Origin: Camelus ferus | Taxonomy: Eukaryota | DNA length: 64,000 nt | NCBI RefSeq assembly: GCF_009834535.1 | Contig: NC_045696.1 | Span: 15,440,001 to 15,504,000 of the forward strand | Reading direction: 5' to 3' | Shown here: in pieces, positions 10,281-63,003 of the stretch | Layout of the letters: every line of letters begins with the position of its first letter | Numbering within the stretch: position 1 is the first letter of the stretch | Translations under genes and position numbers: made by a program | Notes under the pieces: model-generated | What the model was told of the DNA's origin: nothing | What the model saw: only the letters and a program-made list of their open reading frames with translations | The model's database searches: none

Positions 10281-10448
10281 GACATCTCCTTGGCCTCTCC
10301 CATGATGATTCCAAATTCTGTGAAGAGAACTTCGGGACCACAGAAGATAAGCGCTTAATGTCTTCCATCCTGACCAGCATCGACGCATCCAAGCCCTGGT
10401 CCAAATGCACATCTGCCACCATCACGGAATTCCTGGATGATGGCCATG
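10281..10448 (+). CDS. ADAMTS5: ADAMTS5 coding exon 3 (C-terminal part of metalloprotease domain)
   Basis: Acceptor tctcccttAG, donor GTaggt, 168 bp, phase 1/1. Translates (G)HLLGLSHDDSKFCEENFGTTEDKRLMSSILTSIDASKPWSKCTSATITEFLDDGH, the second half of the HExxHxxGxxHD zinc motif plus the Met-turn. Confidence 0.98.
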
Positions 10449-16400: not shown

Positions 16401-17254
16401 AGATCTGCTAAGCGTTCCCTGGTTTATACAAGGTTCTTTTTTTATGGAGCAAGGAAGATAATGCTTTTCCTGGAGTTCTGAAGTGCCTCATCTCGTTTTA
16501 TCTTCTAAACAAAGCTTAGTGAGCTTTCACTGTCATTCCTTCCTATTGCCTTGGTGTTGATGCTTTTCTTTTTACTTGATGTTTTTCTCCCAAAGTTCTC
16601 TTTGGCCGGATACTTATTTTTAATGCTTTTTCTGGCTGGCCTTAAGAAGCTTTACCTCTTCAAACGTTCTGGCTAAGAAGTTAAATAGAAACTTTTGCTC
16701 TTTATTCATTTTCATAGAATGCCTCCATCACAGATTGACAAATTTTAAGGCATTCATTTTGAAGAAACTTGAGTGTCGTTTTAAAAACATTTGCAGTAGG
16801 CTGTGCTGACTTAAAATGTGCTGAATATTCCATGTCTCAGTGGAAAATAGGATTTAAATATGCTTTTTGTTTGTTGAATAAAAAGAATAACTTGAATACA
16901 TCTGAAATGTTGTTAAATATGGGAGTAGTCCCAACTAGGATTGTTTTGTGTATTTCTGGGTTCCCCTTATATCTCTGTGAGCTGATTTTGCCCTTACAGT
17001 GTCACAGTGAGGAGAGAAACATTTCACAGATCTTGAAAATAAATTAGGGAGCAGTTAACTAACTTGGCCAAGCACTCAGCCATTTAGTGTTTTGCCAGAA
17101 TTAGACTTTAGACCGGGTGTTTCTACCATGAGGCAAGCTATCTACCACTTAAAGGATCCTTCTACGTGCCTGCGCTGGAGCAAGAAAATAAGAAATCTAT
17201 CCACGTTGCTAGGCAGAGGCAGGATGGTATAAGATGAGGAGGGGAGGCTCTGAG

Positions 17255-17445: not shown

Positions 17446-18452
17446 CATCGTTCATAATCAGCGTGTCAATTGTAAAATCAAATAAACAGAAAAATACAGG
17501 AACTGATGGGCAAAAAGCAAGCTCCCCTATGAAGAGAGAAAATTAATGGCGTTAACTCACTGGATAGGGACTCTTAAGGAAGCGTTTTGGGAGCACCTAC
17601 TTGTTTGGGGCAGACCCACTCCAAGGACCCAGCACGTACCAGTTAAATTCAACAACTGACACAAAGGGAAGAAAAAGGAAGAGATGAGTAAAAAAAAAAA
17701 AAAAGGGCCTGATCCCAAGTTTTCAGAGGTGCTTTCTCCCACTGCTCCTTTATTCTGTGATGCTTGAAAGCTCTTTATTAAAATTCTTTCAGTCTAGGAG
17801 AAAGACTTCATCTAGTTTATTGGGAGTCCTTGAGAGGTAGAGCTGGATCATTTTTCTATATTCCCAAAATCTAGTACCTTTGCTAGAACATTGTAGGTGC
17901 TCAGCACATGCTTGTTGAATGAGTGCAAGGATGAACGAGTCATCGCCTTGTTTATTTTTTACAGAATTAATGAAAAGATGACATGGAAGGGTTCATGAAA
18001 AGGGAGTAAAATGGGGCAATGGGAAGTAGAGAACGGGGTATAGAAAGAGTGCAAGGACTCAAAGTTGTATACACTTTATTATTATTATTAATTATTATTT
18101 ATTATTATATTCACTATCTCATTTTCTCTATGTCCAGCCCAATTTCTTTTAGTCCCTCACCACAATGGCTCTTTTCACAACCAATTATTATAAAATAATT
18201 TTATTTAATCAAACCACTGCCATCATTATGGATACCCCAAGCACATCATCCATTGGAAATCCGGGAGGAGGTTGACAAGCTCACGGAGGTGCCCAGCCTG
18301 GTCCCCCGTGGAGTCGCTTCTCCAGGACATCACACTGCAGATCTGTCTGGATGCATCGTGTTTCAGCACCAACCCGGGTCTTGCATTTTCAGGTCCAATA
18401 ATTTCAGAGATTTGAAATAGAAACGCAGAACAGTGGTCAATCTTGGTTATTC

Positions 18453-18930
18453 TGTTACCCCCAAAAGTAAAGACCCCAGTTCTTGTCATACCTGAAAGAC
18501 AAGTTTACAGTCGGGAGACGGTGCGTCGTGTAGTGAAAGATTTTTAAGATTTATTTAGAAAAAGGAAAGTGCACCTCCAAGAATGGGAGGCAGGCTGATC
18601 TAAGGGGGAAAAGCAGTGGTCTTTGTCTCTCCTTCTCTTACAACCTTGCTTAGAGATGGTCTTTTAATTGATTGACATGATGCTTTGTCATGTTTGGCCC
18701 CTTTTACAAGTGTCTTTACCCCTGGTTTTTACAGAAAAACCCATGGGGGGGGGGGGCGCTAAGCCGCAAAGTTAATTATAATACAGTTGTGTTTTAACCA
18801 GTTTCTTGCTGGCACTCATTCAGAGGAAGTAAAGCCCCTTTATGCTTATGGGCATAACCCCATCTTCCAGACCACCCTCCCTCTCCTCCAGCTATCTGCT
18901 CCATGCCCCGACTTATCTAACCACCTAACA
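18453..18930 (-). mobile_element. ERV1-like solo LTR, copy A (intron 3, abutting the exon 4 acceptor)
   Basis: TGTT...AACA termini, 478 bp. Colinear homology with 23322-23848. AATAAA on the minus strand near 18550. Probable 4-bp TSD ATTC/CTTC (one mismatch). Confidence 0.85.
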
Positions 18931-18940
18931 CTTCTTTTAG

Positions 18941-19224
18941 GTAACTGTTTGCTAGACCTACCACGCAAGCAGATCCTGGGCCCCGAAGAACTCCCAGGAC
19001 AGACCTACGACGCCAGCCAACAGTGCAACCTGACGTTCGGGCCCGAGTACTCCGTGTGCCCCGGCATGGATGTCTGCGCGCGCCTCTGGTGCGCCGTGGT
19101 GCGCCAGGGCCAGATGGTGTGTCTGACCAAAAAGCTGCCAGCCGTGGAGGGGACACCGTGTGGGAAAGGCAGGATCTGCCTTCAGGGCAAGTGTGTGGAC
19201 AAAACCAAGAAAAAATATTATTCA
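18941..19224 (+). CDS. ADAMTS5: ADAMTS5 coding exon 4 (disintegrin-like domain)
   Basis: cttcttttAG / GTaagt, 284 bp. Translates (G)NCLLDLPRKQILGPEELPGQTYDASQQCNLTFGPEYSVCPGMDVCARLWCAVVRQGQMVCLTKKLPAVEGTPCGKGRICLQGKCVDKTKKKYYS. Confidence 0.98.
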
Positions 19225-21054
19225 GTAAGTGATTTTCTTGTCACGCAAAGCCTGGAGACCCAAGGTCTGAAGTCTATTCCTGGGACATATGTGGGGCCTG
19301 TCACCAGAAAGGCTTTATTCCCTAGTTAGAATATTTTTTCCTGGAAAGATCTATATACAGATTCCTCCTTTACCCACAGGAGCCAACCTCAGTCCTCAAA
19401 TAGTGGAGAAAATACAGATCTCAGGCTATATACTGAAACAAAAACACAGAGCCCAGATTCTGTCGAATGGAGACCACAAGTAGGGCCCCAAATCAAGGTT
19501 TGGGAGTTTACTTTTGACTTCTCTTAAATGTTATGGGAACTTCACTAAGGAAATAGCCATAGACGTGATCCTCACACATACTTGGTGAGCTCCAAAAGGG
19601 TCATGTTTTTCCCCTTAGAGCAAGTTAATCTACCTGTAGGAATTGAAGTACACCTGCTCCAGGGAAACACCTCCTGCTGTTTCCAAACCAAAAAGTTCTT
19701 GTCCCCGAGGCACAGCAAGGCCAAAGAAACCAAAACGTAGGAGTTTCGAGCAGAGAAAGGTTTGTTGCAGGGCCAAGCAAGAATGGGTGGCTTGTGCTTG
19801 AAAAACTCAAACTCTCCATTGGTTTTCTGGGAGTAGGTTTCATAGGCAAAATTTAGGGAGAGGGCTGCAGGGTGTGTGACTGTTCTGATCGGCTGGTGGT
19901 GGGTAGCAGAGCAGTGCTCCAGGGATCTTGTGCTCAGCCAGAAGTTGCCATCCTCCACCTGGGTGGGGCCTTAATTCCTGCAGAAGAACTCAAAAGATAT
20001 TGTTATGGATACTCCTTGACGAGGTACCAGGATCCTGATTTAATGGCAACACTAGCCTTTCTTGACTGCTCCTCCTTGGACACAGAAAAGATTTGTACCA
20101 GGGAGGACCCCACAGGGTCCTGCTCCGTTTCACTGCCTCCCTGTGCACCCAGTCCAGCTTCAGGTCAGCCATCGCCACCTTCGTTTTCAAGGCCCACACA
20201 AAGCATTTGTTCCCTCTCAATCCAACATTTTCAGAGTCCCCAGAAGAGTGTTGCCATGTGCATGTTTCCTCTGCCCTTCAAGACTGTCATACAACTGAGC
20301 ATTCTCAGGTACCCTGACCCAGGCAGCCAGAGGAAGTTCTTCAGGAATTCCCTGGACAAAGGAGTTTCCAGTGTGCTTGCTTTTGGTCTCTCAGCTTCCT
20401 GCTGTAGTGTTTCCAGAGCAAGAGGCCTGGGGTGTCATAGCAGGGCTCTTCATTCTCTGTGGTGTGGGTGCATGTGACAGGTGCACGTCAGTATCTGTCT
20501 GTTTCCTCTCTGTGGGGTATAATGAAGTCAAGCCCAGGTCAGATACATTCATGCATGTGGCAGAGGGTCTGTCACAGATGGGATGTGTGATGTCCACCAG
20601 GGGACCGCAGAACTTCAATGCCAAAAAGGGAGAAAATATGTAAGCACTATCAGCTAATGCCTGAGTCATGCAAAACCTTTAGCATCATACTGTTTGTTAA
20701 ACATGCGAGATTAAGAGTGGACACAAAGTGAACTACGCTTCAGTGGTTATTAACCGAAATGCGCAGTATCAGAAGGCCATAAGTAACCCTTGCAGTGTGC
20801 TCAGAGCTTGGGGTGAAGTATTCAGACTCTCTGCTGCTGGAGAATGGAGAGGCAGACAAGGCGAGTTGCTTAGAACTGGAACTGTGTTGTAATTCCAGAG
20901 CGTCCAATACCTGTGGCCATGTTAAATTCAGTGACAATGTAACTGTATCTAAGATGAAGTTTCCTCTGAGTCATTGAATGCAAGTGATCTCCAAATGTAT
21001 GTTTTGAATGCTTTCCTCCCTTCTGAGTTAAAATATCTTCTATTTCTCTTTTAG

Positions 21055-23321: not shown

Positions 23322-23848
23322 TGTTACCCCACAAGGGGAAGGGAAATACCCTAGTTCTTGTCGTAACCGAAAGATGGGAATACAGATGGGAGACAGAGCG
23401 TTACGTCGTGAAAGATTTTAAAGGATTTATTAGTAAAAGGAAAGTACTCTTCCAAGAACAGGAGGTGGGCTGATCCAAGGGGGAAAAGCAGCGGTCCCTG
23501 CCTGCCCTTTCTCTTATACCCTCGCTTAGAGATAGTCTTTTGACTGATTGACAGCTCTTGCCCCTGGAGTGCTTAGTCATGTTTGTCCCCTCCGCACATG
23601 TCCTTACGCGTGATGTACACAGAAAAACCCACAGAGGGGGCCTAAACTGCAATGCTAATTATATTACAACGAGCACTGGGTCACGTCCGGTTAGGTCCTT
23701 GTCGGATTCTAAGCGGTTTCTTGCTGCCACTCATTTAGAGGAAGTAAAGCCCCTTTATGCTGGAGGCAGGCATAACACCATCATCCGGACCATCCTCGCT
23801 GTCCTCCACCTGTCTGCCCGGTGCCCCCACTTATCTGCCTACTCAACA
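23322..23848 (-). mobile_element. ERV1-like solo LTR, copy B (intron 6)
   Basis: TGTT...AACA termini, 527 bp, perfect 4-bp TSD CTAA (23318-23321 and 23849-23852). Minus-strand TATAA (near 23515) and AATAAA (near 23428). Confidence 0.9.
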
Positions 23849-24122
23849 CTAACACATTCGGAATTAAGCTCAAGAGAGAAAGGGCATAACCCAGATCTAT
23901 CTCAATTCTTTCTGTCAATACATCAAGGATTTGTCAGTCGATACTCCTATTAACTAGGGGTGTTTTGGGGTTTTTTGTTTGTATGTTTTTTGTTTAGTTT
24001 TCAGTGTACTATCTCTTCCAATCAAATTTAAAACTTCCAAATTAGAACTTGCTGTTTTATCAAAGAAACCACGTTCACAAGCACAGGTATTTCCCACGGC
24101 TGACGTGTTTCCCATTGTTCAG

Positions 24123-43116: not shown

Positions 43117-44136
43117 TGTAAATGAGGTGACTGAGAAGGGCTTAATTTCCAGAATATACAAACAGCTCATACAAATCAATAACAAAAAAAAAACATGAGC
43201 AGAAGATCTAAACGGACATTTCTCCAACAAAGATGTACCAATAAGCGCATGAAAAAAAAGTTCAATATCTCTAATTATCAGAGAAATACAAATCAAAACT
43301 GCAAAGGGCTTCACCTCACACCAGTCAGAATGGGCATCATTAAAGAGTCCACAAATGAAAAGTGCTGGAGAGGGCATGGAGAAAAGGGAACCCTCCTACA
43401 CTGCTGGTGGTAATACAGTTTGGTGCAGCCATTATGGAAAACAGTATGAAGATTCCTTAAAAATTTGAAAACAGACTTACCCATGATCCAGCAATCCCAC
43501 TCCTGGGCATATATCTGGAGGAAACTCTAATTTGAAAAGATATATGCACCCCATTGTTCATAGCAGCACTATATACAACAGCCAAGACATGGAAGCAACC
43601 TAAACGTCCATTGACAGATGATGGGATAAAGAAGATGTGGTATATAGATAAAATAGAATACTACTCAGCCATAAAAAAGAATAAAATAATACCATTTGCA
43701 GCAACATGGATGGACCTAGAGGTTATCATACTAAGTGAAATAAGACAGGGAAAGACAAATATCTGATATACTTATATGTGGAATCTCAAAAAAAAAAAAA
43801 AAAGGAAAGATAAATGAACTTATTTACAAAACAGAAACAGACTCACAGACATAGAAAACAAACTTATGGTTACCAGGGGGAAAGGGTCGGAGGAGGGATA
43901 AACTGGGAGTTTGGGATTTGCAGACCCTATCTACTATATATAAAATAGGTAAACAACAAGGTCCTATTGTATAGCCCAGGGAACTATATTCAATATCTTT
44001 TAGTAACCTATAATGAAAAAGAATACAAAAGAGAATATATGTGTACATATATATGTGTGTGTATAACTGAATCAGTATGCTGTATACCAGAGACCAACAC
44101 AACATTGTAAATAGACTATACTTCAATTAAAAACAA
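43117..44136 (+). mobile_element. 5'-truncated L1 (ORF2 C-terminal remnant and 3' UTR)
   Basis: ORF2-like peptides ([10 protein letters not shown]..., MFIAALYTTAKTWKQPK...FAATWMDLE) with frameshifts. TSD aagatgctactgg / aggatgctactag. Confidence 0.95.
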
Positions 44137-50707: not shown

Positions 50708-51185
50708 TATAATACCCAGCAATTCCACTCTTGGGTATATATCTGAAAAAAAAAATAAAAACACTAATTTGAAAAGGTATAGGCACCCCAGTGTTACCAT
50801 ATGATCCAGCAATCCCACTCCTGGGCATACATCTGGAGAAAACTCCAATTTAAAAAGCTACATGCACCCTTATATTCATATCAGTATTATTTATAATTGC
50901 CAAGGTATGGAAGCAACCTAAGTGTTCGTCAGCAGATGACTGGACAAACATGATGAGATATATGTATACACACAGACAGAGAGGAATACTACTCGGTCAT
51001 AAAAAAGAAAGAAATTTTGCCATTTGCAGCAACATGGGTGAACTTGGAGGACATTAGTCTTAAGTGAAATTAGTCAGAAGAGAAAGACAAATACAGTATG
51101 AAATCACTTATATGTGGAATCTGAAAAATATCACAAACTAGTGAATAAAACAAAAAAGAAGCAGGTTTACAGATATAAAGAAAAT
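50708..51185 (+). mobile_element. L1 ORF2-end/3' UTR fragment with internal diverged duplication
   Basis: ccagcaattccactc..., ggaagcaacctaagtg, gccatttgcagcaacatgg, cacttatatgtggaatct. Confidence 0.9.
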
Positions 51186-60162: not shown

Positions 60163-60481
60163 TATATGGAATCTAAAAAAAAAAGCAAAAGAAAAAACAG
60201 TCATGAACAAACTTATTTACAAAACAGACACAGACTCATAGACATAGAAAACAAACCTATGATTACCAGGGGGAAAGTGGGTGGGAGGGATAAATTGGGA
60301 GTTTGGGATTTGTAGATACTAACTACTATATATAAGGTAGCTAAACAACAAAGTCCTGCTGTATAGCACAGGGAACTATGTTCAATACCTTGTAATGGCC
60401 TATATGTATGTGTACATGAATCACTATGTTGTATACCAGAAATTAACACAACATTGTAAATCAGCTATGCTTCAATAAAAA
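60163..60481 (+). mobile_element. L1 3' end
   Basis: Same family as 43780-44136 (acttatttacaaaacaga...gtatagcacagggaactat...cttcaataaaa). Confidence 0.9.
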
Positions 60482-61194
60482 TGATTTTTTTCTAAACGGA
60501 AAAAAGCAATAAAAGTGCCAATCAGCTTGAAGTGGACATTTATAATTATTTGTCTTGCTAGCATCATTTTTCTTTTCCTAAGGGCACCATGATTTCCAAA
60601 TGTTGAGAAATTACCCCTTCCCTTGTTGTGAGACTATAATTAGGGTCCCAATCTTCTCCTGGTCAAGCAGTGAGATGTTACTCAAGATGGCCAATAATTC
60701 TGGAATTGGAATGTTAAGCAGACAAAGGGACTGAAAATTGTGGCTTATCCTATGGTTCTTGTTCCGTTCTCTGCATCTACTTTTCTACCTGTTTATTTCC
60801 AACCCTGTTTCTCCAGACTCTGTGTCAAGCCTGAGAACTTCCAATAACACACCACAATTTTCTTGGATTCGTGTTAGGCAAAGGCAGTTTCTATTACATG
60901 CAATCAGAGAATCCCAACTGATATTCAGGTGAGCCCCGTCAGTCATTCTTAGATGAATATCACCACATGCTACTTTGGATTCACTGAATTGTCATCAATC
61001 AATGAAAGTATTAGATCACATTTGTGTGATCAATACTGTTCTTGATGCTGGGAAAATTATAAGGAAAAAGAAGAAAGACCCTGACTTACTTGCAGTGAGT
61101 TTATTCTATAGTTAAGATTAATCCACATGCAACAGTTCCAGTTCCATACACACAAAGAACTCAGAAGGAATGCAGTCACTGTCCAAGCAATGAC

Positions 61195-62492: not shown

Positions 62493-63003
62493 ACCTAAAC
62501 TGACAGATGAATGGATAAAGAAGATGTGGCATATATACACAATAGAATACTACTCAGCCATAAAAAAGAATAAAATAATGCCATTTGCAGCAACCTGGAT
62601 GGACCTAGACATTATCATAATAAGTGAAGTAAGACAGAGACAGACAAATATCATATGATATCACTTACATGTGGAAGCAAAAAAAAATGAGACAAATGAA
62701 CTTATTTACAAAACAGAAAGAGACACACAGACATAGAAAACAAACTTATAGTCACCAAAGGGGAAAGGGGAGAGAGGTAAATTAGGAGTTCAAGATTTGC
62801 AGATACTAACTACTATACATAAAATAGATAAACAGCAAGGTCCTACTGCATAGCACAGGGAACTATATTCAATAACTTGTAATAGCTTATAATGAAAAAA
62901 AATTTAAAAAAGAATATATATATACATGTAACTGAAGCACTATGCTGTATACCAGAAACTAATAACACAACATCATAACTCAACTGTATACTTCAATTTA
63001 AAA
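62493..63003 (+). mobile_element. L1 3' end
   Basis: gacagatgaatggataaagaagatgtgg...gccatttgcagcaacctggatggacct...tacttcaatttaaaa, close to the 43.6-44.1 kb copy. Confidence 0.95.

Follow-up and report, generated by a model that had tools for sequence, protein, structure and literature searches.

Can a constitutive coding exon of an old and conserved gene keep working after a retroviral sequence has landed inside its 3' splice region, and which bases would then serve as its branch point? This question is raised by the ADAMTS5 gene of Camelus ferus. The window analysed here is a stretch of 64,000 nucleotides (RefSeq assembly GCF_009834535.1, contig NC_045696.1, positions 15,440,001 to 15,504,000 of the forward strand), in which a solo long terminal repeat (LTR) lies 10 bases upstream of ADAMTS5 exon 4. 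Coordinates below are those of the window, and the features lie on its + strand unless stated otherwise. A first-pass annotation of this DNA had proposed that the exon 4 branch point now comes from the LTR. We regard the whole explanation as probable: an LTR would have inserted into the pyrimidine tract of intron 3, the end of the LTR would now provide the branch site, and the host AG would have been kept.

The LTR, designated copy A, occupies 18453 to 18930 (478 bp). It is delimited by the termini TGTTA...TAACA (TG at 18453-54, CA at 18929-30) and by homology to the other members of its family. Upstream of exon 4 (18941 to 19225) the order is host sequence ending in ...GGTCAATCTTGGTTATTC, the LTR running from TGTTACCCCC to CCACCTAACA, the host bases CTTCTTTTAG (18931-18940) and then the exon. 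The annotation had placed the LTR end at 18930, with 10 host bases left before exon 4, and all of its coordinates were correct when read on the sequence. A 4-bp target-site duplication flanks the insertion, with ATTC as the left copy (18449 to 18452) and CTTC as the right copy (18931 to 18934). The duplication claimed earlier therefore stands with a small correction, namely that its copies match at 3 of 4 bases only, the A-to-C difference being at -10; one change in eight duplicated bases is what is expected at the age of the insertion. The C at 18931, where the left copy has A, takes one purine out of the pyrimidine tract, a change that is not distinguishable from drift. What remains of the host acceptor is TTTTAG (18935 to 18940), and the intron of an outgroup contig, L031, ends in ...TCTTCTAG.

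The last AG upstream of the acceptor is found at 18890 to 18891, after a C/T-rich tract. It is followed by an AG-free zone of 47 nt (18892 to 18938, 72% pyrimidine), which consists of 39 LTR nucleotides and 8 host bases. Three adenines in perfect yUnAy context were identified in this zone, all of them in the LTR. A18915 lies at -26 in CTTAT (18912 to 18916), which was recognised by eye and is part of the family-wide ACTTATCTAAC; A18920 lies at -21 in a first CTAAC (18917 to 18921); and A18928 lies at -13 in a second CTAAC (18925 to 18929) that is part of the terminal inverted repeat of the LTR. The two CTAAC motifs, with the first A at -21, had been reported in the annotation at the same positions. 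Passages of Kralovicova et al. 2021 (PMC7969005) place about 90% of human branch points at 19-37 nt before the 3' splice site and name UACUAAC as a branch sequence preferred in humans. A18915 and A18920 fall within this range and A18928 falls outside it. The first CTAAC is the best candidate for the branch point; A18928 probably lies too near the AG for the main role.

The positions from -11 to -488 are LTR, so that the whole of the usual branch distance from -18 to -40 is of transposable element (TE) origin. As described in parts of the same study (PMC7969005), AG exclusion means that the first AG lying more than about 8-12 nt downstream of the branch point is the one that gets used. The AG-free zone before exon 4 holds only LTR bases and 8 host pyrimidines, and under AG exclusion no usable host branch point is left in it. 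Because of this rule the only plausible branch sites are in the LTR, and we strongly infer that the LTR supplies the branch point of exon 4. The pyrimidine tract has become a hybrid, to which the LTR contributes CCACCTAACA and the host CTTCTTTT; by hand count it contains 14 pyrimidines in 18 positions, compared to 13 in 18 for the rebuilt ancestral tract.

The ancestral end of intron 3 can still be read on the far side of the LTR, at 18432 to 18452 (...AGTGGTCAATCTTGGTTATTC), and it translates as (Q)WSILVI, the residues found directly before exon 4 in other mammals. It contains a TCAAT whose As, at 18439/18440, formerly stood at about -19/-20 and are now about 500 nt from the exon. The shift measured is 482 bp, in good agreement with the displacement of about 480 bp proposed in the annotation. 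TCAAT is the sole purine-containing part of the old AG-free zone and lies within the widely kept W-S-I codons, and its As (18439-40) were probably the former branch point. Between 18430 and 18938 there are 34 AG dinucleotides, 33 of them inside the LTR. Given these 34 intervening AGs and the exclusion rule as worded in sections of PMC7969005, the old branch region should be unable to serve the acceptor.

Whether the site is empty elsewhere was read in protein space. The frame of exon 4 is open upstream through the acceptor, so open reading frames (ORFs) on the raw contigs of other species include the end of intron 3. With the window ORF 18763-19326 as the query, 54 hits were obtained among 83 candidates. 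The mammal-type exon start GNCLLD(L/V/I)P was present in 17 hits, and 14 of these 17 reached at least 14 residues upstream. In every one of the 14 ORFs the left flank of the window (…EQWSILVIL) joins exon 4 directly. Counted back from the last pre-exon residue, the preceding 13 residues matched this flank (NRNAEQWSILVIL, 18416-18454) at 6-12 of 13 positions, whereas their agreement with the LTR-derived peptide was limited to 1-5 of 13. The three short ORFs, which read M(I/V)IL(L/S)G, agreed with the empty-site reading. The best hit, P0010, reads NRNTEQWSILVILLGNCLLD (NRNTEQWSILVILLGNC); when exactly 482 bp (the LTR and one copy of the duplication) were taken out of the window, the result was NRNAEQWSILVILLGNCLLD, in register with P0010. 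In the intron-derived part of P0010, 58 of 91 residues are identical to the window, so the match comes from no close relative.

These intron ends bore out the ancestral acceptor, ...TCTTGGTTATTCTTTTAG, that the annotation had rebuilt by removing the LTR and one duplication copy. Its proposed comparison of intron 3 ends across species gave no LTR in any of the 14 other mammalian ORFs. The presence of 18900-18930 in outgroups had been named as the observation that would speak against the proposal, and the LTR sequence was absent from all 14 of these intron ends. The empty site was found in the ruminant-type ORFs P0003, P0004 and P0050, which share KQIPGPEE with sheep P0155, and also in forms with an exon 4 protein identical to those of dolphin and hippopotamus. 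Outside this set, the intron of contig L031 (a vertebrate contig of non-mammal-like type in a metagenome record) runs uninterrupted to its end, ...GGTTGGTTTGATCTTCTAG, with no LTR. An LTR-exon junction was seen in none of the 54 hits, a result that is silent on sister species, since very near genomes are possibly outside the set. No relative was found in the genome-contig and viral-contig scans, and the metagenome scan gave two contigs only, both of them non-mammal-like. The best explanation of these sequences is that the insertion arose in this lineage after its split from the ruminant-type and the whale/hippopotamus-type lineages.

The LTR belongs to a dispersed family. A second copy in the window, copy B, lies in intron 6 (23322 to 23849, + strand), is 71% identical to copy A and has a perfect CTAA/CTAA duplication. 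In the 2.09-Gb genome from which the window comes, a search gave 1088 first-look candidates; 40 of these, which were scored, contained 52 matching segments on many contigs with 70-85% identity. The set compared further had 31 members, namely copy A, copy B and 29 genomic loci. All 31 copies have their start at TGTTACC or close by, and their end at CCTAACA or close by. Their 4-bp duplications are perfect in 13 copies, have one mismatch in 12 (including copy A) and two or more in 6, several of which have damaged ends. At most one mismatch was therefore seen in 25 of 31 duplications, compared to about 5% expected by chance. Taken together, the dispersed family, the shared termini and the duplications indicate that the LTR bounds are no chance reading. 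Copy A also has a run of 12 G at 18745-18756, where copy B has GAGGGGG at the equivalent place.

Pairwise Kimura two-parameter (K2P) distances over the 31 copies had a mean of 0.197 and a median of 0.193, and the mean distance of single copies ranged from 0.17 to 0.24. Copy A had a mean distance of 0.213 to the others, with its nearest relative at 0.184, and copy B was the most diverged of all (0.241). The distance to the common source is about 0.10 per copy and about 0.115 for copy A. These distances point to an old, star-like family. The mammalian neutral rate is about 2.2e-9 per site per year. The insertion would then be roughly 45-50 million years old, a figure made coarse by CpG decay and by the uncertainty of the rate.

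A 4-bp target duplication is typical of class I (gamma/epsilon-like) endogenous retroviruses. The family resembles their solo LTRs in its TG...CA ends, 5-bp inverted repeat, 4-bp duplication, length of about 480-580 bp and dispersion in at least hundreds of copies. It differs from them in that no internal retroviral region or primer-binding site was found here, which leaves class and orientation unsettled. No shared primer-binding site was detected among 19 + 20 LTR ends with TGG within the next 4 nt, a protein search of the flanks not having been made. A TATA-like ATTATAATAC occurs in 22 of the 31 copies. AGTAAA on the + strand is present in 25 copies and AATAAA on the - strand likewise in 25, so that either orientation of the LTR is possible. 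Two loci on one contig, L070 and L071 (G000:C34), whose LTRs start about 1 kb apart, are followed by the same non-LTR sequence, the sole shared flank among 39 junctions; it may be an internal-region remnant or a local duplication.

The origin of the CTAAC motifs was examined in the same set. Among the other copies, 30 in number, the proximal CTAAC was found in 25, the terminal CTAACA in 19 and the pair in 15. The common ending of the family is ACTTATCTAACTACCTAACA, whose last bases, TAACA, form an inverted repeat with the 5' TGTTA, and the last AG is at least 55 nt from the LTR end in 15 of the 30. Since most other copies have the motifs at the same positions, the LTR would have arrived with them in place; on this comparison the CTAAC motifs are ancestral to the family and were not gained at this locus, which is how the check on family copies suggested in the annotation turned out. 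The annotation had left two options, that the LTR variant carried CTAAC or that CTAAC was gained after insertion, and the first of these stands while the second falls. It had also set copy A against copy B, which does read CTGCC and TCAAC at the equivalent positions; this contrast was misleading, copy B being a mutated copy.

From these observations the following course of events can be proposed. A retrovirus-like element of a 4-bp-duplicating LTR family would have entered ADAMTS5 intron 3 at its polypyrimidine tract, with ATTC at -10 to -7 as its target, and would later have collapsed to a solo LTR. The insertion would have shifted the conserved branch region (TCAAT, about -19/-20) 482 bp upstream, behind 34 AGs. 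The gene could have survived because the exon-facing end of the LTR was already fit for the task: it is rich in pyrimidines, and the last 39 nt of copy A contain no AG. Among the other copies, about half have an AG-free end of at least 60 nt. The end of the LTR carries ACTTATCTAAC(T/C)ACCTAACA, with its three yUnAy sites at -26, -21 and -13. The U2 small nuclear ribonucleoprotein would most likely pair with the CUAAC of the LTR (A18920, -21) or with CUUAU (A18915, -26), and U2AF would bind a hybrid tract, its LTR part being CCACCUAACA and its host part CUUCUUUU, with the original host AG in use. To speak of exaptation of the LTR as a core splice signal, as in the annotation, is a reasonable reading, but it would come down to a replacement that the insertion forced, by a sequence that fitted by chance.

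The state of the gene bears on whether exon 4 is still spliced. Exons 3-8 of ADAMTS5 lie on the + strand of the window, their identity being established by exon matches. Exon 4 is 285 nt long (95 codons, phase 1-1), belongs to the disintegrin-like region, starts with GTAACTG and has its donor GTAAGT at 19226. Over the 94 full codons the protein is 100% identical to that of hippopotamus; dolphin likewise has an identical exon 4 protein, and several other mammals reach 99%. Compared to whale ADAMTS5, exons 3-8 aligned in six segments with 81-98% identity and with no frame break within an exon. Intact exons and an unchanged exon 4 protein, next to an LTR that has drifted at about one tenth of its sites, would hardly be expected if exon 4 had ceased to be spliced tens of millions of years ago. 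From this conservation we infer that ADAMTS5 must be alive here and that normal inclusion of exon 4 must be common.

Several points weigh against the LTR end being the functional branch region or are neutral to it. No signal of purifying selection was found on it: the agreement of the other copies with copy A was 0.79 over the last 40 nt and 0.82 over the rest, and copy A ranked 26th of 31 for relative conservation of the last 40 nt, a ranking based on few sites. For the last 20 nt of copy A the agreement was 0.88, again from few sites. Both CTAAC motifs are retained as well in the 15 of 30 copies that carry the pair and are taken as neutral. Matches to the branch-point consensus are common by chance, and the presence of a motif by itself proves little. 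Finally, copy A has CCAG at 18888-18891, preceded by the C/T tract CCCTCCCTCTCCTCC and 49 nt upstream of exon 4, and this CCAG could compete as a decoy or cryptic acceptor. When the copies were compared by eye, 25 of the 30 others had CCAC at this place and none had CCAG.

This copy-specific CCAG is the basis of a different explanation, in which the LTR altered the outcome of splicing, so that a sizeable share of transcripts uses the AG at 18890-91 or skips exon 4, giving less ADAMTS5 or a new isoform. Use of the AG at 18890-91 would add 49 nt and cause a frameshift, with a TAA (18918-20) after nine codons. Skipping would stay in frame, the length of exon 4 being a multiple of three, and passages of Zhang, Romanish and Mager 2011 (PMC3088655) associate exon-near TEs more often with chimeric or aberrant splicing. 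The perfectly conserved exon 4 protein and the intact downstream exons speak on the other side, since they require that normal inclusion be common, and we consider a substantial change in splicing outcome unlikely. A related form of the idea, that the LTR turned a constitutive exon into a regulated one by decoy splicing (stop after 9 codons) or by in-frame skipping of the 95-codon exon, rests on the CCAG decoy and on a weaker hybrid pyrimidine tract and is likewise held at a low probability. If true, it would amount to lineage-specific tuning of aggrecanase-2 output through decoy splicing or exon 4 skipping.

A branch point at the old position (about 18439-40) or at some other distal site, with the LTR looped out, was considered as well. 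The old region is intact in sequence, and parts of PMC7969005 mention branch points hundreds of nucleotides distant in a few introns. However, the 34 AGs before the acceptor violate the AG-exclusion zone that such a site needs, and good branch motifs are available at -21 and -26, which makes distal use very improbable. We give equally little credence to an assembly error or a rare polymorphic insertion. Nothing was found in its favour, except that the best-matching DNA run may be the assembly's own sample. Among the 24 public sequencing runs listed, 16 contained half or more of the words sampled from 18400-19260, an 861-bp stretch that covers both junctions, and six of them reached 0.96-0.99; altogether 20 runs from 10 studies carried words of this stretch. 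All other family copies are about 0.2 K2P away, so the words sampled belong to this locus, and the same divergence implies great age. A gain of the CTAAC motifs by mutation after the insertion, followed by selection at this locus, had only the lack of both motifs in copy B to suggest it and is rejected by the comparison with the 30 other copies, most of which have the motifs at the same positions (proximal in 25, terminal in 19), by the mirroring of the 5' TGTTA in the terminal TAACA, and by the outlier status of copy B (mean distance 0.241).

The origin of the exon 4 branch point in the LTR, which we favour, can be compared with several systems already described. Alu exons were reportedly studied by Lev-Maor in 2003 and Sorek in 2004, both cited by Mercer et al. 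2015. In Alu exons, antisense Alu elements bring branch points and pyrimidine tracts, as stated in passages of Mercer et al. 2015 (PMC4315302). The locus is similar in that a mobile element carries a ready-made B-box, CUAAU in Alu and CUAAC/CUUAU in the LTR, beside a pyrimidine tract, which the spliceosome takes up in Alu exons and would take up in the LTR. It differs in that, as far as those passages go, the Alu cases concern new and usually alternative exons with mapped branch points, whereas the LTR would replace the signals of an ancient conserved host exon.

In minigenes of OGDH intron 4a, insertions of MIR elements add or remove branch points, according to sections of Kralovicova et al. 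2021 (PMC7969005). In both cases a TE placed downstream of a branch point and ahead of the 3' splice site alters the choice of usable branch points, and the same AG-exclusion logic applies. The OGDH work, in the sections concerned, deals with engineered constructs, distant branch points and mutually exclusive exons; the present insertion, in contrast, is natural, apparently fixed, tens of millions of years old and placed before an ordinary exon. Parts of Zhang, Romanish and Mager 2011 (PMC3088655) report that few TEs lie within 20 bp of exons, with a bias away from acceptors; acceptor-side TEs this close are strongly depleted and are enriched among disease-causing insertions. Copy A, less than 20 bp in front of its exon, belongs to this underrepresentation zone, but it was tolerated and kept. 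Those parts of the paper count the survivors without analysing how their acceptors work; the near-acceptor survivors must work similarly.

The literature covered, with most subscription journals outside it, described neither this locus nor any conserved exon whose branch point comes from an LTR. The mentions of ADAMTS5 in the available portions of PMC4419796 are about human MLT1J2 and are irrelevant to this LTR. TE-borne branch points are already known, and the locus is a natural further case rather than a new mechanism. Its interest lies in the position of the insertion, since insertions within about 20 bp of an acceptor are, in the parts of PMC3088655 cited above, among the most selected-against and most often pathogenic. 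A fixed insertion before an ancient exon amounts to a natural experiment, suggesting that a tolerated end needs an AG-free, pyrimidine-rich stretch and a U2-pairing motif at the right distance. It would also be an instance of branch-point turnover by wholesale replacement and not by point mutation. The prediction follows that this LTR family, in this orientation, may be unusually harmless, or acceptor-forming, near exons. Because one gene contains both the old and the new branch region, it would make a clean minigene system for comparing them.

Further features of the gene and the window were noted. Exon 3 of ADAMTS5 lies at 10281 to 10448 (+ strand), ends in ...GATGATGGCCATG and has its donor GT at 10449-50; by tblastn it corresponds to residues 413-470 of whale ADAMTS5 with 95% identity. 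It supplies the first base of a Gly codon that exon 4 completes. The variant YDAS is found in the window, sheep, dolphin and hippopotamus, and YDAT in dog, shrew, pangolin, macaque and rhinoceros, a difference of a single residue that agrees with a cetartiodactyl and with the camelid source assumed in the annotation. In P0056, the annotated model of hippopotamus isoform X2, ...TVAHEI is joined directly to GNCLLD, that is, exon 3 is skipped.

Intron 3 contains a block of 179 nt (window 16571-16743, L031 2507-2680) with 65% identity between the two (E 6e-12), which may be a conserved non-coding element; its distance to exon 4 is about 320-490 nt in L031 and about 2.2 kb in the window. Another interspersed repeat was found at 43483-44132, 50801-51048, 60181-60482, 62501-62997 and, inverted, at 910-1065. 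Its copies have 63-91% mutual identity and look like the 3' ends of an element of the long interspersed element (LINE) type.

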